The notes below the pieces were generated by a model. That model did no database searches. It was not told the origin of the DNA and saw only the letters and a list, made by a program, of their open reading frames with translations. Shown here in pieces: positions 2,017 through 43,850 of a stretch of 46,430 bases of DNA (position 1 is its first letter; each line of letters begins with the position of its first letter). Source of the DNA: an uncultured Candidatus Saccharibacteria bacterium (GTDB lineage: Bacteria > Patescibacteriota > Minisyncoccia > Phycocordibacterales > UBA9973); the NCBI GenBank assembly GCA_964439045.1, contig CAYTMO010000003.1:1-46430 (forward strand), written 5' to 3'. The position numbers were made by a program, and so were the translations under genes.

Positions 2017-2739
2017 TCAGGTTGCGGGGGCGAAATGCACGGCACCATGGCCATGCACAATGATCGAAACGTCGACGCGTGCTTTTGCCCGCGTTCCGCC
2101 GCACGCGCGGCACTCAGCGCATGTCGTCTTGTGGCCAGCCTCTGCCGAGGCAGGGCAAGCGATCTCGTAGGCTTCTAATGGGTCCGTCGCGCCCCTGACA
2201 CGGAACGTGCGGAAGCCTAGCAGCTTTGCGGCCGCGCGATCCGCTGACGTGTCAGCTGACGCCATGCAATACGGCGCCAGTTCGGGAAAGGCGCGCCATT
2301 GATGCGTGTAGCCACTGTGGGCCACGCTTCGTGCGGTCAGGCGTTCCCACACGTGCAAGGGTACTGCGGCAGGATCCCCATAGCTACCAATGCGCACGAC
2401 GCGGCCGGCGCCTACATCCTCGGGCGAAGCTTCGGTGTAGATGCCGCGATGGTAGGAACGCCAGACATTCTGGGGCGCCTGGAATACCAGCACGTAGCAA
2501 GAGCGGCCGCGCACCTTGACGCCGTCCGTCGTGCCGCGGTGCGGGCATTCGCCGCACACTGACGCATCGGCGCCGGAGTCGATCGCGTCGACTGGCGAGA
2601 TATCCTCGCGCAAGATCCAGGTCTGGACCATTGCACCCGTCTTGCCATTGGTGGAACGCTTGGCCAGCCCCGTTGCGATTGCGATAATTGGCGAGCCGTC
2701 CAGCATCGAGGGCCCACGGTATATGATTGCGCCGTTCAT
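2017..2739 (-). CDS. Cys-rich hypothetical protein (240 aa)
   Basis: ATG at 2739 (MNGAIIYRGPS...). Contains CGECPH and CAECRACGG motifs, suggesting metal binding. No family assigned. Confidence 0.65.
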   Translation of the reverse strand: MNGAIIYRGPSMLDGSPIIAIATGLAKRSTNGKTGAMVQTWILREDISPVDAIDSGADASVCGECPHRGTTDGVKVRGRSCYVLVFQAPQNVWRSYHRGIYTEASPEDVGAGRVVRIGSYGDPAAVPLHVWERLTARSVAHSGYTHQWRAFPELAPYCMASADTSADRAAAKLLGFRTFRVRGATDPLEAYEIACPASAEAGHKTTCAECRACGGTRAKARVDVSIIVHGHGAVHFAPAT

Positions 2740-2813
2740 GGCTTTATTCCCTTTTCTGAAGCTTCTGGCGCTTCGTGCTAGGCGCGAGACAAGCCCACGC
2801 CTAGCCCGCAACG

Positions 2814-3329
2814 TCAGGCGCGGAATGCATGCCTTAAAGCGGGAAACATGTAGTCGGGCAGCGAGCCGTAGTATTCGACGTCGCCTCCCATATCCTCCAA
2901 GACAAACTTGCGCTGATCGATCGGGAAAAAGCCGTTCTCTTCCTTGTACTCAAGCTGCCCGATCACTTCGGCTTCGATGATGCGCCGGAACAGAAGCGAC
3001 GACGCATCGCCATAGACGGTCGCGAGTTGCGTTTGCTGTAGCGCGCAAACCTTGCGCTCGCCAGCGTCGTCAAAGCCGGCATTGGCGAGGATGTGGCAAG
3101 CGTCGTGCCACGCGCGAGCGGCAAGGTTCATCTCGGGATCGCCGTATATGGTGCGATCGCAGTGGAGCGACGACACTGTGATGACGCCATCGCGCTTCGC
3201 TCGCGCCTTGAGTTGCGCCAGTGACGACGGCGCGTTGCGCGAGACATTCCATCCGCGCGGGTTGGTCAGGCGTGCGAGGCGAAGTGTGGCCACGTTGAAC
3301 GCGGGAAACATCGGCTTAAGCATGTTCAT
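2814..3329 (-). CDS. Hypothetical protein (171 aa)
   Basis: ATG at 3329 (MNMLKPMF...) preceded by AGGAGT. The upstream part of the 255-aa ORF is Arg/Pro-rich read-through. Confidence 0.65.
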   Translation of the reverse strand: MNMLKPMFPAFNVATLRLARLTNPRGWNVSRNAPSSLAQLKARAKRDGVITVSSLHCDRTIYGDPEMNLAARAWHDACHILANAGFDDAGERKVCALQQTQLATVYGDASSLLFRRIIEAEVIGQLEYKEENGFFPIDQRKFVLEDMGGDVEYYGSLPDYMFPALRHAFRA

Positions 3330-3417: not shown

Positions 3418-3651
3418 TCAAACACTCCCTTGCTTGGCGGGGATTGCACCTTCGGTCGCGCCATGCTCGATCGTGGCCACGAGCGTGTCCATGGCGTCTT
3501 GCGCGTCGTCTGTGTAGTAGGCGCGATCCTCGCACCACTGCGGGTCACGCGGCCGATACGGCGCCACGCGGTATTCGCCATCGCGCTTGCTGACGCTGTA
3601 TTCGTTAGCGCGAGCTACGGCTTTCAGGGTTTCGAGCTTGATACGCGCCAT
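3418..3651 (-). CDS. Hypothetical protein (77 aa), first gene of the left early block
   Basis: ATG at 3651 (MARIKLETLK...) preceded by GAAGGGA. Lies downstream of the repeat-rich control region. Confidence 0.6.
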   Translation of the reverse strand: MARIKLETLKAVARANEYSVSKRDGEYRVAPYRPRDPQWCEDRAYYTDDAQDAMDTLVATIEHGATEGAIPAKQGSV

Positions 3652-3740
3652 GTGGCGTTCCCTTCGTTGTTGATGATGTGAGATTGCGCCTGTACTCCGA
3701 GCATGACAAGCGCTTCGTGAGCGTGAACGCAAGAAAGCAA

Positions 3741-3835
3741 TGACGTTGCGCATCTTCGATGGATTGTTGCGCGTTAGCTGGTGAGCAGCGCATGATTGTT
3801 GCGGCGATCGTTTGCGTACGAATGATCGTTGCGCA
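3741..3835. repeat. Four spaced copies of TGAYNGTTGCG (operator or iteron-like)
   Basis: TGACGTTGCG at 3741, GATTGTTGCG at 3762, TGATTGTTGCG at 3793 and TGATCGTTGCG at 3823. Spacing is about 21, 31 and 30 bp. Non-coding, upstream of the leftward gene at 3651. Confidence 0.55.
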
Positions 3836-3960
3836 CCAGGGAAGCGGCGACGCGGGCATTGGCTAGCGTGAGCATATTACTAGTTGGCAATATAGCGATG
3901 CAGGCATGTGTAATGGGCGTTACACTTCGCGAGTGAATTGGATCATGGGTCGATGGTCAT

Positions 3961-3983
3961 CTGATATATCAGTTGCATATCAG
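3961..3983. promoter_or_regulatory. 12-bp palindrome CTGATATATCAG followed by a third ATATCAG half-site
   Basis: Perfect palindrome at 3961-3972 and an ATATCAG half-site at 3977-3983. Confidence 0.4.
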
Positions 3984-4104
3984 ACCGGGCGCACGACCCA
4001 CTCACACTCACTCTCGTCGTCACCAAAACGCGGAAGCTGAACACAAGCACTCGCCATCATGCGCCCTGGTTGCGATGGTTATCCGATGCTGACCTATGCG
4101 CGCA

Positions 4105-4116
4105 ACGTTATAACGT
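4105..4116. promoter_or_regulatory. 12-bp AT-rich palindrome ACGTTATAACGT (copy 1)
   Basis: Perfect palindrome. An identical copy lies at 4420-4431. Confidence 0.5.
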
Positions 4117-4173
4117 AACGCGGTCGATGGTCATACGTGCACGAACGATCGCCTCGGCTGGCGGCCGAGCGCC

Positions 4174-4217
4174 GGGGGCACTTTGGGGGCGGGGGTGGGG
4201 TCGCGGCGGCCGCGACC
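4174..4217 (+). other. G-quadruplex-type G-run cluster followed by a 19-bp GC palindrome
   Basis: G5 at 4174, G5 at 4185, G5 at 4191 and G4 at 4197. The palindrome GGTCGCGGC-G-GCCGCGACC spans 4199-4217. Confidence 0.4.
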
Positions 4218-4416
4218 TCCCAGATCGCCCCAGACCCCCACCGAAAAACGAGGCAACATCTTGTGTTGACCAGAAATAAACCCCAGAACCACCCCAGAAA
4301 AACGAAGCAAGATAAGATCTTACCTCGCCCCCTACCCCGGCAGCGCAAAAGCCGAACCCCAGCAAATTCCAGAAAAATCGAGAACCCCTGGCCAGACACC
4401 AGTCAACATAAGATCT
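4218..4416 (+). repeat. C/A-rich repeat field with CCAGA motifs, GAAAAAYGARG boxes and ATAAGATCT repeats
   Basis: At least 7 CCAGA motifs. GAAAAAYGARG boxes at 4243, 4297 and 4372. ATAAGATCT at 4312 and 4408. No credible ORF on either strand. Confidence 0.55.
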
Positions 4417-33543: not shown

Positions 33544-33697
33544 CGGTCGCCTCCCCATCTACGACTGGGATGTCGCGCCACACCAACTCGTGGCCAACGA
33601 TCCAGCAGCGTTGCATGAAGTCGCGGTCGCCCGCAACCACGCGCCGATAGTTGTCGGTCGGCTTGGCGATCTCCGGCTTGGTAACGATCTCGCTCAT
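33524..33697 (-). CDS. Small hypothetical protein (57 aa; not in the ORF track)
   Basis: ATG at 33697 overlaps the stop of the metallophosphoesterase gene (ATGA). Translation begins MSEIVTKPEIAKPTDNYRRVVAG. Confidence 0.4.
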   Translation of the reverse strand: MSEIVTKPEIAKPTDNYRRVVAGDRDFMQRCWIVGHELVWRDIPVVDGEATDADRRG

Positions 33698-35823
33698 GTC
33701 GTGCTCCTGTGAGGCATGATCGGCATGGAGCCATGGCTCCAGCGATGGTTATAGAAGCCGCGGTTGAAGAAGCGCATGATCTCGGGCGCAAACCGGGTTA
33801 TCGCTCCCGTTTTGGGGTCCTGCGTCAGCTTGACCAGGGCGCCGCCGACGTGCGCCTCTAGCTTCTTCTTGCGCATGAACGGCGTTTGGTCTTCTGTGCA
33901 GTTGTGAACGGCCACGTTCCCGGCGATGTAGGAGTTGTCTCCCTCGACCTCGAAGTTGTAGACCCTGGCCGGGCGCGATGGCTTAGCCCGCTTGACGCCA
34001 ACCACGGCGACCTTGCACATGGTGGTCTCTTGGTCGTACTCGTACCACGAGCGGGGCTGGATCAGACGCTCGGTCAAAGGCACCCAGCGCACTTCGTCGA
34101 CCTTGGCCCCCAGGGCAGAGCCGTCGTACTTCGCTTTCTTGTGCTCTAGGAGGCGGCCCCTGCTGCGCTCGATCTCGAAGGCGACAACCTTGCCGTCCTT
34201 GATTCCGATGGCATCAGGGATTTGCGAAGCCCCGACAGGGATCATCCGCCAGCCCTCGGCTTCCATCTTGGCGCAGAAGGGCAGGATGTCGCGCTGGAGG
34301 TGAACATCTCCGTCGCTGCCGCCGCGCTTCCAGACCTTCGACCCCTTGGTCGCCGAAAGCCTATCCCGAGTTTCGGCTAAGTCCATCGGGTTAGCGTTGC
34401 GCGACATCTTCATCCAGTAGGGGATAGGCTCCCCGGTCACCGAGCATGGGTGAGACTTGACGAACACTACGTCGCCAACCCGGATCTCAGAAATCGCCTT
34501 CCACTCCTTGCGCCCATCTGCGGTCTCGGTGAGGACGGGATGCTCGGGGGTGGCCGTGAGCGTCTGGTCGAAGCGCCCGATGCGCCCGTAGTTCAAGGAC
34601 ACCATGTCCCCGTAGTGGAGGCGCTCGTAGAGCCTTGTGACCTTCCGCAGTCTGCCCAGATGGGTCACCACTTCGTCGCCCAGCTTCACGTTCTTGATGC
34701 TGATGCGCCCCGCCGCAGTCTCGACCCTGGTGTTGGCCGTGAAGCAGCCGGTCTGAAGGCACCAGACGTTTCGGATGTTGCCTGCCCAGAGCTTGTGATA
34801 GTGGCCGTAGAGACCGACCGCCGGCTTCTCGCCGCCGTCCAGGCTCTCGATGATCTTCTGGATGGAGTAGCTCAGCGCGTAGGCCGAGCCGCCGCCAGGA
34901 TGCACCACGGCCAGCATCGAATAGGCGCCCGTGTTGGCGTTCACCAGCTTGACGTGGGCCTCCATGTAGCCGAGGTTGACCCAGTCGCTGCGCCCCGCCT
35001 GCTGCATCACGTGCTCGGCGTACTTGCCGATGTCGACGCCCTCGCGCTGGCCGTACCAACCTTCGTGGTCGTCGCCGGCCACGGCGTAGGTCACCAGCCC
35101 CTTGCGCTTTGGATACTCCGCGGCAAGGTAGGCAAGCTGGTTGTCCATGCCGTGCGTGTGCAGGTCGAACTTGTTGAAGCGCGCCTCACCGTCGATCCAG
35201 TTGCCGGCGTTGAACACGCGATCGGCGCCCTCCTCGACGAAGGTGTCGTAGAGGCTGTTCAAAGTGTCTAAACGCTCATACTTTGAACCGAGGTGGTTGT
35301 CCGACGTGGCGCCGAAGAGGAACGTGTTGTCGGGGCGGGACACGTACTCGAACACGGGGCCGCCGATGAACGCCGGCTGCACGTCCTTCTCCAGCGTCAG
35401 CACGCCCGCGCGCTCATGGACGTTGTGGCCCTGGCGCCGGAGCATCTCGATCTCGTCGTGCGTGAAGCCCTGGCCCACCGCCCCCTTCTTCAGCCGCTCC
35501 AATAGCGTGGGCTCGGGCGGGGGCGGGACTTCGATCGGCGCGGGCTCGACGACGCGCTGCGGCTGACCCAGTGGGACAAGGCGCGGCGGCTCAGGCAGTT
35601 TGTAGCGCCCCCAGTCCGGTTCGAGCCCATACACCGCCTTGATTATCTCGAAAACGCGCATGGTGGTAGAGTTGCGGTTGAGGCCGAGGTCGATCGCGGC
35701 CTGGGTCAACGCGCCCGGCCCCTTGCCAGGGAACCCAGGCGGGCGGAAGCCACGACTCAAGCAGTCATTGACCGCGCCGACGCGGCGCGCAGCCTCTTGG
35801 AAACTGATGTGTGGGGACGCCAT
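33694..35823 (-). CDS. Calcineurin-like metallophosphoesterase precursor (709 aa) interrupted by an intein
   Basis: GATSDNHLG, AGNWIDG, GDDHEGW and GHYHK motifs indicate a metallophosphatase fold. N-terminal ~130 aa extension. AAGGAG RBS. Confidence 0.75.
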   Translation of the reverse strand: MASPHISFQEAARRVGAVNDCLSRGFRPPGFPGKGPGALTQAAIDLGLNRNSTTMRVFEIIKAVYGLEPDWGRYKLPEPPRLVPLGQPQRVVEPAPIEVPPPPEPTLLERLKKGAVGQGFTHDEIEMLRRQGHNVHERAGVLTLEKDVQPAFIGGPVFEYVSRPDNTFLFGATSDNHLGSKYERLDTLNSLYDTFVEEGADRVFNAGNWIDGEARFNKFDLHTHGMDNQLAYLAAEYPKRKGLVTYAVAGDDHEGWYGQREGVDIGKYAEHVMQQAGRSDWVNLGYMEAHVKLVNANTGAYSMLAVVHPGGGSAYALSYSIQKIIESLDGGEKPAVGLYGHYHKLWAGNIRNVWCLQTGCFTANTRVETAAGRISIKNVKLGDEVVTHLGRLRKVTRLYERLHYGDMVSLNYGRIGRFDQTLTATPEHPVLTETADGRKEWKAISEIRVGDVVFVKSHPCSVTGEPIPYWMKMSRNANPMDLAETRDRLSATKGSKVWKRGGSDGDVHLQRDILPFCAKMEAEGWRMIPVGASQIPDAIGIKDGKVVAFEIERSRGRLLEHKKAKYDGSALGAKVDEVRWVPLTERLIQPRSWYEYDQETTMCKVAVVGVKRAKPSRPARVYNFEVEGDNSYIAGNVAVHNCTEDQTPFMRKKKLEAHVGGALVKLTQDPKTGAITRFAPEIMRFFNRGFYNHRWSHGSMPIMPHRSTT
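33901..34746 (-). mobile_element. Intein (282 aa) within the metallophosphoesterase
   Basis: Starts CFTANTRVETAAGRISIKNVKLGDEVV, has TPEHPV (block B-like), and ends YIAGNVAVHN followed by Cys. Boundaries were verified codon by codon. Confidence 0.75.
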
Positions 35824-36484: not shown

Positions 36485-38467
36485 TCACTTCTTGTAACGG
36501 TTGCCTTCCCAGCCGTCGACCCGGATCGGCCAATCCTTGGCGAACGCGGGCAGCGCAGCGAGAGCGGTTTGCTCGAACTCCTTCAGCGACCCGAAGCCGT
36601 CCCTGGCCTCGGCCACGATCTCGTCGTAGACTGTCAGTACGACCGGGTAGCCGGCGGCCTCGACCGCTGAGGCCGCGGGCCACAGGATCTGTCGCGCCGT
36701 GGCCTGGATCGCGTTCTCCGTCAGCTTGCCCCCGTAGGTGTGGGTGCGGAAGAACGAGCCGCCTTTCTTCGTCATGTAGGTCAGCGCGGGCTGCGGCTTG
36801 CAGCGACAGGTCCCCTCGGCGCAGTCCTCGTTCAACTCCGGGTCATGCCAGCGCGGCATCTTGGTGCGAAGCTCGGGCTTCCAGTACCAGATGCACTTGC
36901 CATCGGGCAGGACCATCGCCAGCCAGTCGTCGATCATCTCGAACCCGAAGCAGCGATAGCTCGTCTCGCGCTTGTGGAGCACGCACTCGATGGCCGCGTC
37001 CTCCATGCCGTACCACATGGCGACGATCGCCGGGTGCTCGCGACGCCACGCCTTGCAGATCTCGATGATGCGCTCGTCGCTATGGCGCCCGCTGTCGTCA
37101 AACTTCAGCCAAGCATTGAGCGCTCCTTGGTACTGAAAAGCGAGTTCTCCTACCTTCCCGTCTGCTCTCTCCAGCGGGTGCGTCTCCTTCGTGACCGTGC
37201 CGACGGGCAGGCCGTAGATCTTGTCGGCCATCGCCTCGTAGATCTTGACGCCGTCGCGGAAAGCCTTGACCTTCCAGTCTTCCCCCGCGGCGCATGCGCA
37301 AACGACCGCCTCGATCGACACGTAGTCGAGCGCCAGGATGCGGTGCCCCTTCTCGGGCTGGATGAAGTAGCGCAGCGCACGACTGACCGCTTCGCTGGGG
37401 CTGCCGTAGAGGCAGCGCAGCCACGCAGGATCGCGGTGCATGATGTCGCGCACGAGCTGATCCGGGTCCATCTTCTCCCACGAGCGCACGAGGTTCAGCG
37501 GCTGGAAGCCGGCGCCCGTGTTGCGACCCGTGTTGGTGCCATGGTAGCGGGTCTGGAACCGAGCCCGGCCATCGCTGCCGAGTTGCGCCGCCATCTTGTC
37601 GAGCTTCTTGGTCGACGCCTTGTTCAGTTCCAGGCGCAAGACCATGGCCCGCCGCGCCTTCCCTTGCGGGATGCGCCCGTCCTCGGACAGTGCGTCTTCC
37701 AGCGTGTCGGCCGTCATGTCGGGCAGATCGATGCCCTGCTCCAGCAGCCACGCCTTGACCTTGGGAAGCTGCGTCGGGTTCAGCCCGGTCAGCTCCCTGA
37801 ACTCCTCGGTGAACTCGGTCGCCACCTCGTCGATGATGTGCGCCGCCGCGGCGATGCCCGCCTTGTCCAGCTTCAGCCCGCGGGCGTTGGCCTTGAGGTC
37901 GAGCTTGAAGATGGGCAGTTCACGATCCGGCAGATCGCCGAGGAAATCGGAGACGGACTGCTCGATCGCCACGTCTTTGCGGCAGTAGTTGACGAACTTC
38001 TGGAAGTCGTCGGGCGGGATGATCTTCTTGGCGGTCTTGAGGTAGAGCTTCGAGTATTTGGTGATCAAACGACCACCTTCCGGGTCCTTGCCCTCGTAGC
38101 CCAGCACCTTGGCCAGCTTGTCGAGGTCGGCAGGCAGGGCGTAGTAGCTGGCAACGGCCATGGTGTCGCGCCACTGGTGGTCGAGGATCGCGACCCAGCC
38201 GAAGCGCTTGACCATGATGTTCGCCCAGATCGAATACTCGAACGAGACGTTGTGGGCTTCGACTTCGTGGCCGGTCATAAGCGCGACGTAGAGATCCTGG
38301 GGGCAACGATCGCTGTCGTTCTTGCCTGGCCACCAGTCCTGGATCGGCCGACTGTCGATACCGTAGCACATGCAGATCACTTCGGTCGTCGGGTCCTCGG
38401 AGTAGCTCCAAGGCCCGACCGCCCGCAGATCCGCGTAGCTCTTGGTTTCGAAGTCGATGGAGATCAT
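36485..38467 (-). CDS. Family A DNA polymerase with 3'-5' exonuclease domain (660 aa)
   Basis: ISIDFETKS (Exo I), LDYVSIEAV (motif A-like), RADGKVGELAFQYQG (motif B-like) and LTVYDEIV (motif C-like). ATG at 38467 overlaps the upstream stop. Confidence 0.85.
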   Translation of the reverse strand: MISIDFETKSYADLRAVGPWSYSEDPTTEVICMCYGIDSRPIQDWWPGKNDSDRCPQDLYVALMTGHEVEAHNVSFEYSIWANIMVKRFGWVAILDHQWRDTMAVASYYALPADLDKLAKVLGYEGKDPEGGRLITKYSKLYLKTAKKIIPPDDFQKFVNYCRKDVAIEQSVSDFLGDLPDRELPIFKLDLKANARGLKLDKAGIAAAAHIIDEVATEFTEEFRELTGLNPTQLPKVKAWLLEQGIDLPDMTADTLEDALSEDGRIPQGKARRAMVLRLELNKASTKKLDKMAAQLGSDGRARFQTRYHGTNTGRNTGAGFQPLNLVRSWEKMDPDQLVRDIMHRDPAWLRCLYGSPSEAVSRALRYFIQPEKGHRILALDYVSIEAVVCACAAGEDWKVKAFRDGVKIYEAMADKIYGLPVGTVTKETHPLERADGKVGELAFQYQGALNAWLKFDDSGRHSDERIIEICKAWRREHPAIVAMWYGMEDAAIECVLHKRETSYRCFGFEMIDDWLAMVLPDGKCIWYWKPELRTKMPRWHDPELNEDCAEGTCRCKPQPALTYMTKKGGSFFRTHTYGGKLTENAIQATARQILWPAASAVEAAGYPVVLTVYDEIVAEARDGFGSLKEFEQTALAALPAFAKDWPIRVDGWEGNRYKK

Positions 38468-38679
38468 TTGCCGTACACCTTCGCCTGCTTGGCCTTGACG
38501 ATCGCATCGACTTCTGCGCAGTCCAACGCGCCTTCGACGTAGAGGCGGATCAGGCTGGAGCGCGACGTGCCCAGATGCGCCGCCCACTTGCCCAAGCGAT
38601 CGTGCAGGTCGTTCGGCAGGTAGACGTTGAACGTGCGGTGCTTGGTCGGGAAAGTCGGTCGGCCACGTTTCTTGGTCAT
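38464..38679 (-). CDS. Ribbon-helix-helix protein (71 aa)
   Basis: RTFNVYLPNDLHDRLGKWAAHLGTSRSSLIRLYVEGAL fits the RHH pattern. GGGGAGG RBS. The 161-aa ORF in the track is upstream read-through. Confidence 0.65.
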   Translation of the reverse strand: MTKKRGRPTFPTKHRTFNVYLPNDLHDRLGKWAAHLGTSRSSLIRLYVEGALDCAEVDAIVKAKQAKVYGK

Positions 38680-41528: not shown

Positions 41529-43850
41529 TCAGATCGAGTGCTTGTGGTCAAGCGCTTGATAGATGGCGACGTCTTTTCTGATCGCCGTCGACATCACACG
41601 CTCGTCCAACGTGCCCGGCACGACCGGGATGTGGCCGATGACGCGGTCGCCCGTCTGCCCCTTGCGGTGGATGCGATCGAGGGCTTGATCGTTGCGTCCT
41701 GGCACCCAGTCAGGCTCGGCCAGTACTACGTCCTGCGCCTGCGTCAGCGTCCAGCCTTCGCCGATCACCGCGGTCTGGCCGAGGATGATCCTGGTCTTCT
41801 CCTGCGATTGGAACTGGTCGACCGCCAACTGCTTCTTCGCCGCCGAGGTCGAGCCGTCCATGTAGACGAGGCCGTACTTGGAGAGCTTGTCGCGTAGGTA
41901 GTGCAGGACCGACGTGTGCCACGCCGTCACCACGAGCTTGTCGACGCCGCTCTCCAGCAGATCCTCGACGTACGCAGCGACGCTCGGCATCTTCGCTTCG
42001 CCCAGCATCTTGCGCGCCGTCGAGATGGCGCCGTCGACCGGGATGCCGTCGTTGAATGCGTCCGCGTCCATCTCGTAGAGCTTCGAAGCGATGGCCCAGC
42101 CTGGGTGCTTTAGCGCGCGCCGCATCTCGCTCGTCACCTCCATCGGGAAGGTGTGCCACTGCTTCGGCGGCAGTTCGTGCAGCACTTGCTCCTTCAGGCG
42201 CCGCACCATGATGTGCTTGCGCAAGCGGCGCTGCAACTCGTCGAGGTTCCGCGGCACGTTGCGCACTTTCTCGGACCAGTGCAACTTGTTCGACCACGCC
42301 TGCGTCGCAGGATCGTAGACCGGGCCACGCACCATGCCGCCGCCGAGGTCGTAGTAGTGCTCCCTGAACGCCTCCAGGCTCATGCGGTCGATCGCGTCCC
42401 AGTTAAGCAGGCGCACGGCGTTGTAACAGTTATGGACGACGAGCGGCCCGGCGTTTGACAGGATGGTAAACCTTTGCCGAGGCCCCGCATTCACAAGATC
42501 GTAGACGGGCCTCAAGCTCAAGGACTCTCTCCTGCAATTCCCTGATTGATCTTCTATTCCGCGCGTTCTCAAGCTGAGTGACGCACCGCAAATTCCCAGG
42601 TTCGTACCCTCGGTTGACGTCGATCCGGTCCAGTTCGAGGGACCTATCGTCCCATCCTGGGAGCCCCATGAGGTAAGCGAGGAACTTTCGTCTGCCTTCT
42701 CTCCCTTCTCTCCACTCGCCGAAAACTGATATCCCTCGCCCGCCGTAGCTAGCCCAAGATTGATGTTTGGGGTTGTGGCATCTCTGGATGCATTGATGAA
42801 TGCGCTGCAAGCTCCATCGACGGAGTGCTTTGTCAGGGCATAGTCTGCTGTACGCTGTGTCTCGCTCCCTATTGGACTTCCTGATGTGGCACCTGCGGCA
42901 CCGAGCACGCGGTCTCGTGCGGAGCTTGTCCGCGTGCACTCGGTAGGGGTCGGAGCCGCAAGAGCACCGCACCCAAGTTGCCGCCAAACCGCCCCTAGGT
43001 CCTCGGTCGAGGCTAACGACAGTAAGCTCGCCAAACCTGTCTCCAACGCGCGGCTCATCGTATACTCGCACGCGGCCAGGGCGTGCGCCGGGGACCAAGC
43101 ACCCCCCACTAACGTTTCGTGGTCGGGGGTCATCTCCACCCCGCAGATCTTCATAGTTTCGCGTCCCCCCCGGTACACTAAGCCGCTGTGCCGCACCCAT
43201 TCTACACCGTCCCACAGTAGATCGTTGTCTGAGACGTCGATGATGGCCCTCCACCCCCCATTCGTCAAGACTAAAGTGTCTGGGCCTAAACATTCGATCG
43301 GTTGATTCGGCAGGATCGTGCCGCTCGCCAGCGTGATGCGCCCGGCCACGGAAGGGATGCAATCGGGTGCACAAATGGCGCGGGTGCGGGTGTTGCCCTT
43401 CGGGTCCTTGATCGCGTGCGCTTCGTCCAGGATCACGTGATCCCACATCACATCGAGGATCGCGTCGAGGATCGACTTGTTGGCCAGCAGTGCGTAGGAG
43501 ATGATCACGTAGTTGGCGTCGAGGCTGACGCCGTCCGAGGACTTGAGCACGGGGTAGGTGCTCACGTTCGGGATCGTCGACCACGCCCAGATCTCGCGCT
43601 CCCAGTTCAGCCTAAGACTAGCTGGGCACACAACGAGAGTATGTTTAGCGCCAATAGCATTCCCCAGTAGGATGCATTCGGCAGTCTTTCCCAGACCAGG
43701 AGCATCACCAAACAGATGGTGATTACGAGCGAGACCATACTCAACACCAGCATGTTGGTACTCCATGGGTTTCATGCCCGGCGGTGCCGGGGCACGGTAG
43801 AACTGGGGCGCCACCGCTCGGCTGCGCTCGACTTGGTAGTCTGTCGTCAC
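41529..43850 (-). CDS. SNF2/DEAH-family helicase precursor (773 aa) interrupted by an intein
   Basis: GLGKT (motif I), ILDEAH (motif II) and SGTILPNQPIE (motif III, split by the intein), with C-terminal helicase motifs. GTG start overlaps the upstream stop. Confidence 0.8.
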   Translation of the reverse strand: MTTDYQVERSRAVAPQFYRAPAPPGMKPMEYQHAGVEYGLARNHHLFGDAPGLGKTAECILLGNAIGAKHTLVVCPASLRLNWEREIWAWSTIPNVSTYPVLKSSDGVSLDANYVIISYALLANKSILDAILDVMWDHVILDEAHAIKDPKGNTRTRAICAPDCIPSVAGRITLASGTILPNQPIECLGPDTLVLTNGGWRAIIDVSDNDLLWDGVEWVRHSGLVYRGGRETMKICGVEMTPDHETLVGGAWSPAHALAACEYTMSRALETGLASLLSLASTEDLGAVWRQLGCGALAAPTPTECTRTSSARDRVLGAAGATSGSPIGSETQRTADYALTKHSVDGACSAFINASRDATTPNINLGLATAGEGYQFSASGEKGEKADESSSLTSWGSQDGTIGPSNWTGSTSTEGTNLGICGASLSLRTRGIEDQSGNCRRESLSLRPVYDLVNAGPRQRFTILSNAGPLVVHNCYNAVRLLNWDAIDRMSLEAFREHYYDLGGGMVRGPVYDPATQAWSNKLHWSEKVRNVPRNLDELQRRLRKHIMVRRLKEQVLHELPPKQWHTFPMEVTSEMRRALKHPGWAIASKLYEMDADAFNDGIPVDGAISTARKMLGEAKMPSVAAYVEDLLESGVDKLVVTAWHTSVLHYLRDKLSKYGLVYMDGSTSAAKKQLAVDQFQSQEKTRIILGQTAVIGEGWTLTQAQDVVLAEPDWVPGRNDQALDRIHRKGQTGDRVIGHIPVVPGTLDERVMSTAIRKDVAIYQALDHKHSI
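42429..43292 (-). mobile_element. Intein (288 aa) within the SNF2 helicase
   Basis: Starts CLGPDTLVLTNGGW, has TPDHETLV (block B-like), and ends NAGPLVVHN followed by Cys. The interior is less GC-rich than the flanks. Confidence 0.75.
42430..43071 (-). CDS. HNH homing-endonuclease-like ORF (about 213 aa) nested in the helicase intein, in a different frame
   Basis: RFGELTVVSL, CSCG...CRRC, CHNPKHQSWASYGGRGI and LDRIDVNRGYEPGNLRCVTQLENARN motifs. TAA stop at 42430-42432. The start is uncertain: GTG at 43071 has no clear RBS. Confidence 0.55.
   Translation of the reverse strand: MRVYDEPRVGDRFGELTVVSLDRGPRGGLAATWVRCSCGSDPYRVHADKLRTRPRARCRRCHIRKSNRERDTAYSRLCPDKALRRWSLQRIHQCIQRCHNPKHQSWASYGGRGISVFGEWREGREGRRKFLAYLMGLPGWDDRSLELDRIDVNRGYEPGNLRCVTQLENARNRRSIRELQERVLELEARLRSCECGASAKVYHPVKRRAARRP

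Follow-up and report, generated by a model that had tools for sequence, protein, structure and literature searches.

A phage SNF2-family helicase gene in DNA from an uncultured Candidatus Saccharibacteria bacterium is interrupted by a 288-codon insert that is open in two reading frames of the same strand. The DNA analyzed, referred to here as the window, is the whole of a 46,430-nucleotide stretch (positions 1 to 46,430 of contig CAYTMO010000003.1, assembly GCA_964439045.1). We consider it highly probable that the insert is a selfish element in two parts, carried by two overlapping genes on one strand: a class 1 intein in the frame of the helicase and, in the -1 frame, a separately translated homing endonuclease resembling HNH and AP2 enzymes. 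Both frames are intact, purifying selection changes frame along the element, the start codon of the inner gene bears a signal of selected synonymous choice, the insertion is precise, and alleles without the intein exist. An earlier note, written from the sequence of the window alone, had proposed an arrangement of this kind.

The helicase insert and the proteins it encodes

The helicase precursor is an open reading frame (ORF) of 773 amino acids (aa) at 41529..43850 in the ORF list, on the minus strand, as are all features of the element described below. It consists of 186 aa of N-extein, 288 aa of intein and 299 aa of C-extein, and it matched the Pfam domains SNF2-rel_dom (1.9e-18) and Helicase_C (1.4e-11). 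The N-extein (43293..43850) ends in SNF2 motif III at ...ASGTILPNQPIE, a boundary placed by alignment with intein-free helicases and with an empty allele, locus L095. The insert lies directly 3' of the codons for ...SGTILPNQPIE, runs from Cys1 (43292..43290) to a terminal His-Asn (42434..42429), and reads CLGPDTLVLT...TPDH...GPLVVHN; the C-extein (41529..42428) begins with the +1 Cys (42428..42426), as CYNAVRLLNW.... When the 288 codons were removed, the resulting 485-aa helicase aligned without gaps to 180 phage helicases and was 92-93% identical, end to end, to intein-less metagenomic helicases of 484-490 aa. The insertion point falls right after the conserved Glu of motif III (LTGTPxxNxxxE/L, with the junction marked by a slash), as seen against Thermus phage MN1 (LTGTPIVNRPVE/LW), Ralstonia phage RpY1 and L095. 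The 288-codon interruption at 43292..42429 and its location at motif III, both claimed in the earlier note, were thus confirmed by alignment with intein-free homologues.

Three regions can be distinguished in the intein (42429..43292). An N-terminal splicing region, approximately residues 1-76 (43065..43292), contains CLGPDT (block A), LWDGVEWV, TPDH (block B) and W..A..L (block N4). A linker of residues 77-255 (42528..43064) is open, unconserved and predicted to be disordered. A C-terminal splicing region, residues 256-288 (42429..42527), contains PVYDLVNAGPRQRF (block F) and PLVVHN (block G). The splicing segments of 39 relatives (N-terminal ~80 aa and C-terminal 34 aa) went into a profile, which we searched against PDB; there it matched the NEQ068 split intein (2.2e-5) and the Spl DnaX mini-intein (3.1e-3), and the RecA intein PI-MtuI at an E value of about 0.07; hhalign aligned blocks A, B and F with those of Npu DnaE (E=0.011). 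Cys1, T55, H58 and the terminal Asn were invariant among the 39 aligned family members, and the C-terminal His was at least 90% conserved. All delimited inteins of the family had Cys at position 1, and the +1 residue was Cys or Ser at all loci. The window intein has the class 1 residues (Cys1, TPDH in block B, and VVHN followed by Cys +1). These data point to an intein of class 1 that would be expected to splice; the earlier note had called its layout that of a canonical intein. The in-frame center was devoid of endonuclease features, again as described there; its pLDDT (predicted local distance difference test) score was about 25-30 in an AlphaFold2 (AF2) model built from a shallow alignment of 5 sequences.

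The second ORF (42430..43200) encodes 256 aa and ends in TAA; its frame is -1 (+2) with respect to that of the helicase, and its conserved domain spans approximately 42505..43053. The earlier note had delimited this frame as GTG 43071 to TAA 42430. Those 213 aa matched PHROG 374, 'HNH endonuclease', at 3.3e-30, and PHROG 374, 3377 and 2081, all named 'HNH endonuclease', matched at E=3e-30 to 5e-15. The frame itself was well chosen. Its start probably was not, as the likely start is ATG 43200, about 43 codons upstream; GTG 43071 sits just upstream of a conserved GDRFGELTV motif, and relatives are about 250 aa long. A search of a large protein database with the HNH ORF returned 595 homologues (best E=7e-70), nearly all of them called as separate proteins of 210-265 aa.

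An AF2 model of the HNH frame had pLDDT above 90 over approximately residues 55-240, and the first ~50 residues, which overlap the splicing domain, were disordered. The model shows a zinc-knuckle beta-sheet (CxC...CxxC), a helical region, and strands at 197-200 and 212-215 followed by a helix at 217-222, a beta-beta-alpha arrangement over LDRID...GNLR...LENARN. C79, C81, C101 and C104 were each 100% conserved in the family, and the Asn residues of the motif nearly so (N203 100%, N212 98%, N215 95%). Among the viral models of BFVD, Foldseek returned homing endonucleases annotated as HNH, AP2 or I-HmuI-like (1e-9 to 1e-11). It also matched an ORF of 247 aa, annotated separately in Salmonella phage LPSE1, at 8e-19.

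Guanine plus cytosine (GC) content was 59.1% in the intein, 60.0% in the N-extein, 64.0% in the C-extein and 63.7% in the whole window. The earlier note had called the segment visibly poorer in GC than its flanks; the intein is lower than the window, but the dip is modest.

Conservation of both frames and the start of the inner gene

We scanned IMG/VR and found 517 contigs encoding a relative, of which 80 were retrieved. Removal of near-duplicates left 70 representatives, whose nucleotide identity did not exceed 90% and averaged 57%, and whose GC content was 39-65%. In each of the three contexts inspected first, a homologous helicase (L001) and two DNA polymerases (L002, L003), a long host ORF ran through the intein and the HNH homologue lay in another frame. 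Inteins could be delimited at about 85 loci; they were 281-299 aa long, every one was open in the host frame, and the HNH ORF was in frame +2 relative to the intein at all of them. The HNH ORF was intact in 67 of the 70 representatives, and in these 67 non-redundant loci the host frame contained no stop codon, so that the host ORF is continuous there as it is in the window (773 codons). At L069, L070 and L040 the HNH copy is degenerating through stops or truncations while the intein frame remains open.

When HNH ORFs were shuffled synonymously, the host frame stayed open with a mean probability of 0.017 and a mean of 3.8 stops were produced; for the window, it stayed open in 0.2% of trials (P = 0.002). 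The third frame contained 16 stops in the window and a mean of 16 across the representatives. Because the host frame is open in 67 of 67 loci, the shuffle probability is low and the third frame is filled with stops, sequencing error and chance are excluded as the source of the double open frame. The earlier note had remarked that both frames stay open, and had advised comparison with relatives and resequencing. The comparison found the same relative frame throughout, and since dozens of independent assemblies have kept this layout, resequencing is unnecessary.

Conservation was unevenly divided between the frames. Column identity over intein residues 1-60 was about 0.5 in the intein frame and about 0.26 in the HNH frame; over residues 76-255 it was 0.18-0.34 in the intein frame and 0.42-0.68 in the HNH frame; and over residues 256-288 it was 0.49-0.88 in the intein frame and lower in the HNH frame. 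The most variable codon position was intein position 3 in the N-terminal (0.61) and C-terminal (0.54) parts, and intein position 2, which is HNH position 3, in the center (0.62). The conserved HNH domain is in frame +2 and fits between the splicing blocks, with its start directly behind block N4 and its end ahead of block F. Between the window and L001, which share a helicase-site clade, the HNH frame was 58% identical and the central intein frame 32%, with 72, 58 and 107 differences at HNH codon positions 1, 2 and 3, respectively. Purifying selection thus changes frame along the element, from intein to HNH and back to intein. The sequence of the linker is set by the HNH frame, and the overlapped intein frame is merely kept free of stops.

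In the -1 frame, the base preceding each TGG (Trp) codon of the conserved LWDGxEW completes an NTG codon. At the Glu-Trp junction this codon was ATG in 48, GTG in 17, TTG in 3 and CTG in 2 of the 70 representatives; at the Leu-Trp junction, five codons upstream and in frame, it was ATG in 44 of 67. The window has ATG at the former (43198..43200, from gaA-TGg in LWDGVEWV) and GTG at the latter (43213..43215). Codons supplying the base before Trp were biased toward A. Glu was encoded by GAA in 30 of 42 cases at the start sites (background 42%, p=1e-4), Leu or Val codons ended in A in 44 of 67 (background 15%, p=1e-20), and four-fold degenerate Ser, Ala or Thr codons ended in A in 11 of 13 (background 15.5%, p=7e-8). 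Before other in-frame Trp codons, A was present in only 20%. An invariant TGGGAYGG, formed by the W-D-G codons, lies 7-14 nucleotides (nt) upstream of the start. The probable start codon is built into the conserved Trp codons of LWDGxEW through selected synonymous choice, and embedding it there would tie expression of the putative endonuclease to the mRNA of the host gene. As judged from these patterns, the HNH start is most likely ATG 43200..43198, giving 256 aa, with GTG 43215 as the alternative, and the ORF is probably translated separately.

The stop codon had been described in the earlier note as lying within the last two codons of the intein, so that both elements shared a 3' boundary to the nucleotide. 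The TAA (42430..42432) is indeed within the terminal CAT-AAC (His-Asn), the last base of TAA being one base before that of the intein. Only 20 of the 70 representatives stop there. The others stop 22-61 nt (7-20 codons) earlier. The terminal His codon was CAT in 39 and CAC in 30 representatives. A designed and conserved placement of the stop at the splice junction was rejected on the ground that so few relatives use the position. The shared boundary is a by-product of the His-Asn codons (CAT-AAY) serving as a last-resort stop.

Occupied sites, empty alleles and alternative explanations

The site most often occupied by this family is in DNA polymerase A (...GKVxELA/C...HN/CGYxGGxGAF). About 145 cultured Salmonella Jerseyvirus genomes matched there, under a coding sequence (CDS) for a 1032-aa 'DNA polymerase' that is sometimes labelled 'intein-containing' or carries an 'intein, encoding splicing domains' feature. 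Pseudomonas phage MR14, Shewanella phage SFCi1 and Sodalis phage SO-1 are among the other phages in which the same site is occupied. The helicase motif III site is occupied in the window, L001, P0121, P0128 and P0207. Two further helicase sites contain an intein of the family with a full-length -1-frame HNH ORF, one in L092 (approximately 753-1643, TLVV/C.../CPASLRLN) and one in L093 (approximately 1272-2129, RRLKEQ/C.../CLAQLPPK), which indicates that the insertion site has been switched repeatedly. A megablast search of the region against 50,697 phage records gave no match.

Most of the 120 closest helicases were intein-less, 480-500 aa long and up to 93% identical to that of the window, and a few had inserts. 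The empty allele L095 (...ILPNQPLE/VYN; DNA ...CCTAATCAGCCACTGGAG/GTTTATAACGCTGCC...) aligned base for base with the window across the junction, where the only change was in the +1 codon, GTT (Val) in the empty and TGT (Cys) in the occupied allele. As a side observation, the 45 nt on each side of the L095 junction had more synonymous differences than the average of the gene. L095 (1501-2955) is on the same contig as L026 (3427-4275), JGI 3300005680 Ga0074429_1000254, and its helicase is 93% identical to that of the window. That contig is the reciprocal of the window: it has an intein of the same family in DNA polymerase A and an empty helicase, and the DNA polymerase A of the window (36485..38587, minus strand) is empty at its site, ERADGKV/GELAFQYQGALN. 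In both the helicase and the polymerase A pairs, the +1 codon is Cys if the site is occupied and Val or Gly if it is empty.

HNH genes of this kind were also found outside inteins, and inteins of this kind without HNH genes. A free-standing relative (P0081) adjoins an IS110 element in Pseudomonas fluorescens. Locus L070 has a free-standing HNH copy without an overlapping open frame (2315-3101) just upstream of a polymerase fragment, as well as an HNH copy cut to 85 codons within the intein of that fragment (3427-4269). HNH-less mini-inteins of about 135 aa that keep LLWDGxEWV are present in DNA polymerase A of P0122 (two copies) and P0123. Many contigs with HNH homologues measured only 0.9-1.1 kb, which is roughly the size of the element; these could be products of assembly breaks at the intein borders where intein-plus and intein-minus alleles, or several copies, coexist.

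A mechanism can be proposed from these data. After translation, the intein would remove itself from the SNF2 helicase, whose motif III would thereby be restored. The ~180 linker codons that join the splicing regions would have to satisfy a sole requirement, the absence of a stop codon. The HNH/AP2-like enzyme would be made by internal initiation at ATG 43200 or GTG 43215 and end at the TAA of CAT-AAC. During co-infection it would cut intein-less alleles, and repair would then copy the whole element in (homing). Such homing presumably accounts for the sporadic distribution of the family and for the way it has spread among several helicase and DNA polymerase A sites. The element probably originated when a free-standing HNH gene invaded the usual endonuclease insertion point of a mini-intein, after which selection would have held the host frame open. 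Both the homing cycle and an origin by invasion fit the free-standing HNH relatives, the HNH-less mini-inteins and the degenerating copies within open inteins.

Several results weigh against a two-part element of this kind. The window intein had no Pfam or NCBIfam intein or Hint match at E<=1, and relatives had only weak hits (Vint in 8 of 39, Hint_2 in 3 of 39). Its AF2 model was poor (pLDDT 38.5, from 5 sequences) and unusable for fold comparison. Searches of PDB with single translations from the window gave nothing meaningful, and the intein-frame translation found only 4 proteins in the large protein database, with low-complexity words dominating. The miss by curated models is a failure of sensitivity and does not contradict the assignment as an intein. 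For the HNH ORF, there was likewise no Pfam or NCBIfam HNH match and no significant PDB match by sequence or fold: the HNH profile gave only chance zinc-ribbon matches, and Foldseek against PDB gave nothing significant, the best HNH structure being 4h9d at E=1.3. The HNH assignment thus depends on the PHROG names and the BFVD neighbors. What we take to be the canonical first His of the HNH_3 motif, preceded by Asp, is an invariant Arg here (D191-R192, in LDRID). No His is invariant in the family, and the sole His conserved at 90% or more (position 126) is Leu in the window, whose copy differs from the family at six sites conserved to 90% or above (H126L, R129W, L130S, F206C, N92K, K112E). The Arg may mean either an undescribed variant of the active site or mobility aided otherwise than by the protein's own cleavage, and the predicted nuclease activity is to be read with this in mind. 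Several of these substitutions have counterparts in kind in L001 and might be a sign of retargeting to the helicase site, or else of relaxed constraint. The region upstream of the HNH start lacked a canonical Shine-Dalgarno core at 59 of 67 loci. What is said here of splicing, of a separately made HNH product, of cleavage and of homing is deduced from sequence.

Other explanations of the double open frame were weighed against the same evidence. Two compensating indels introduced by sequencing or assembly could make an in-frame HNH domain, as in a canonical HNH-type intein, appear out of frame; in-frame HNH inteins are known in phages, and a lone contig offers no safeguard against indels. The chance of this is negligible, since the same offset is found in all 67 non-redundant loci from independent metagenomes and in more than 140 cultured Salmonella phage genomes, the splicing blocks on both sides are conserved in the host frame, and the wobble phase shifts where one frame hands over to the other. 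That the HNH frame is a decaying relic, with the window copy an intact-looking pseudogene and the intein persisting by splicing alone, is unlikely. The Arg in place of the catalytic His throughout the family, the divergence of the window at several positions conserved at 90-98%, and the degenerating copies would all agree with decay. However, 67 of 70 lineages keep an intact ORF at about 57% nucleotide identity, variability is concentrated at third positions of the HNH frame both across the family and between the window and L001, and the start codon is kept by synonymous selection. New sites have been colonized recently and alleles 93% identical lack the element, and the substitutions that the window shares in kind with L001 may be a matter of retargeting to the helicase site.

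The HNH protein could instead be made by programmed -1 ribosomal frameshifting inside the intein, as a fusion of the N-extein, the N-terminal part of the intein and HNH. The offset is exactly -1, the proposed start has no strong Shine-Dalgarno core, and the -1 frame of the window is uninterrupted far upstream, across 42430..43584. Against this, canonical slippery heptamers were found in only 10 of 67 loci, scattered over non-homologous positions, and 37 of 67 loci have an HNH-frame stop 0-7 codons ahead of the Glu-Trp start. An ATG or GTG at two fixed positions under synonymous selection would moreover be needless for a frameshift. Programmed frameshifting is therefore quite improbable, and internal initiation is the best model because slippery heptamers are rare, HNH-frame stops lie upstream and the start codon is under synonymous selection. 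It is more improbable still that the insert is not a splicing element at all, and is instead a tolerated loop similar to the ShiLan insertion of mycobacteriophages or a segment cut out of the RNA. The curated intein models of Pfam and NCBIfam fail to recognize it, and the ShiLan insertion has the same frame offset and likewise ends in TAAC. Yet Cys1, TxxH, the terminal His-Asn and the +1 Cys or Ser are invariant or nearly so, the profile matches solved inteins, and the ends of the insert are under purifying selection in the host frame. A loop of 288 aa inside helicase motif III is unlikely to be tolerated, removal by RNA splicing would need no open host frame, and Jerseyvirus relatives are already annotated as inteins.

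Other inteins were met in the analysis. The window has a second, unrelated intein (33901..34749, minus strand) in a metallophosphoesterase-like ORF (33694..35823), reading C/FTANTRVET...NVAVHN/CTED, with Pfam matches to Hint_2 (2.8e-8) and Intein_splicing (1e-6). Its center holds an apparently in-frame insert (...DAIGIKDGKVVAFEIE...); no long alternative-frame ORF is listed across it on the same strand, one of 190 aa overlapping the N-terminal part only. The helicase of L094 contains a different intein of 360 aa (residues 144-503) at the DEAH box (ILDE/C...VSN/CHAIKD), within which a 323-aa ORF in the +1 frame encodes a nuclease domain of the DUF559/Vsr-like type (Pfam 2.2e-13). A second DNA polymerase A site (TYGGKL/C...HN/CEN) is occupied in L090 (2201-3118, APSE-1 P45/P46), L063 (4765-5682), L028 (4666-5586), L030 (4672-5592) and L022 (4178-4960); these inteins, of the APSE-1 type and with the long-known APSE-1 polymerase intein among them, have a PHROG 374 HNH (E=1e-55) in the +1 frame, and their +2 frame is filled with stops. 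The gp34 DNA helicase of Salmonella phage vB_SenS-Ent3 (L091) is annotated with an 'extein' mature peptide, implying a further intein.

The element is a clean and statistically strong natural example of two genes that share about 770 nt, each frame being constrained in a different segment and one of them selected only against stop codons. It supports the "splicing first, endonuclease later" model of inteins, in which a free-standing endonuclease gene colonizes a mini-intein without breaking the host gene, and shows that the intermediate state persists over long divergence. Hundreds of phage genomes, among them more than 140 of cultured Salmonella Jerseyvirus phages and those of APSE phages, have an unannotated or misannotated gene for a putative endonuclease inside a "DNA polymerase" or "helicase" CDS, and surveys that seek in-frame endonuclease domains only would call such inteins endonuclease-less.

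Comparison with known systems

The earlier note had called an overprinted, separately translated endonuclease an unusual organization for an intein. Unusual it is, but precedents exist. Gorbalenya (1998), as described in papers that cite it, reported an out-of-frame LAGLIDADG endonuclease in a cyanobacterial DnaX intein. Phillips, DeSimone and Gogarten (bioRxiv 10.64898/2026.09.14.751524) describe a cyanobacterial DnaX intein with a LAGLIDADG ORF in the +2 frame. As in the window family, the ORF is in the +2 frame, the endonuclease frame is under purifying selection and the overlapped intein frame is relaxed. The DnaX element has a LAGLIDADG enzyme and a cellular host gene, whereas the window family has an HNH-like enzyme, resides in phage replication genes and has switched sites many times.

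Gosselin, Arsenault and Gogarten (bioRxiv 10.1101/2025.01.02.630785) describe actinophage inteins with antisense LAGLIDADG and VSR-like enzymes and with an endonuclease VII-like enzyme in 'frame 3'. These resemble the present family in their featureless in-frame center, an endonuclease in another frame or on the other strand, a sporadic and mobile distribution, and a proposed origin by invasion of an intein by a free-standing endonuclease gene. In contrast, their same-strand case is endonuclease VII-like and their HNH inteins are in-frame, whereas the enzyme here is an out-of-frame HNH/AP2-like one (PHROG 374). Their host genes encode DNA polymerase, minor capsid protein, terminase and thymidylate synthase; those of the window family encode the SNF2 helicase and DNA polymerase A, in phages mostly of Proteobacteria. 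Neither the embedding of the start codon nor the scale of the window family (517 IMG/VR contigs) is described in that work. A direct link between the two groups was unsupported, tblastn with the mini-intein having found no actinophage.

Two other systems share parts of the arrangement. The ShiLan insertion in mycobacteriophage methylases holds an HNH ORF that is out of frame and ends in TAAC, and no splicing domain (PMC11855218). It too has its HNH ORF in the third frame and reads through in the host frame, and translation of the hidden ORF raises the same question. It has no detectable splicing domain and is not regarded as an intein; in the window family, the catalytic residues are present and conserved, as are blocks A, B, F and G, and because these splicing blocks are present and conserved we do not class the element with ShiLan. 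Dassa et al. (2009; PMC2677866) described fractured genes, in which split inteins flank a free-standing endonuclease gene. There, as here, a free-standing endonuclease gene is found at the endonuclease insertion point of an intein, with short overlaps of endonuclease and intein coding sequence. The host gene is broken into two ORFs and spliced in trans in that system; in the window family the host ORF is continuous and the overlapped frame is free of stops.

Further counterparts are in public phage records. The DNA polymerase A intein of Jerseyvirus phages is of the same family as that of the window, with a homologue of the window HNH under the polymerase CDS; examples are vB_SenS-Ent3 gp37 ('intein, encoding splicing domains'), f18SE, SE2 and SETP3, and they differ from the window in host gene and site. 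In the Hamiltonella phage APSE-1, P46, annotated 'HNH endonuclease', is nested in the polymerase P45; this type of intein is at the second polymerase site and has its PHROG 374 HNH in the +1 frame, as opposed to -1 in the window family. Each of the Jerseyvirus and APSE-1 records has one of the two annotated, the intein or the nested ORF, and we found no paper linking them. Our literature search likewise found no paper on a true intein with an out-of-frame HNH, on this family, on its helicase sites or on embedded start codons. Three out-of-frame forms occur in this gene neighborhood, namely the -1-frame HNH of the window family, the +1-frame HNH of the APSE-1 type and the +1-frame DUF559/Vsr-like enzyme of the DEAH-box intein. 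From these three forms, the start codon set in conserved Trp codons of the intein and the Arg at the place of the catalytic His, we raise tentatively, and short of favoring it, the possibility that phage replication genes harbor a large, highly mobile group of inteins in which overprinted and separately translated endonuclease genes are the usual arrangement and no rarity. Out-of-frame endonucleases in inteins were already known; the comparison suggests that the HNH type described here is new and that the kind is much commoner than published papers imply.

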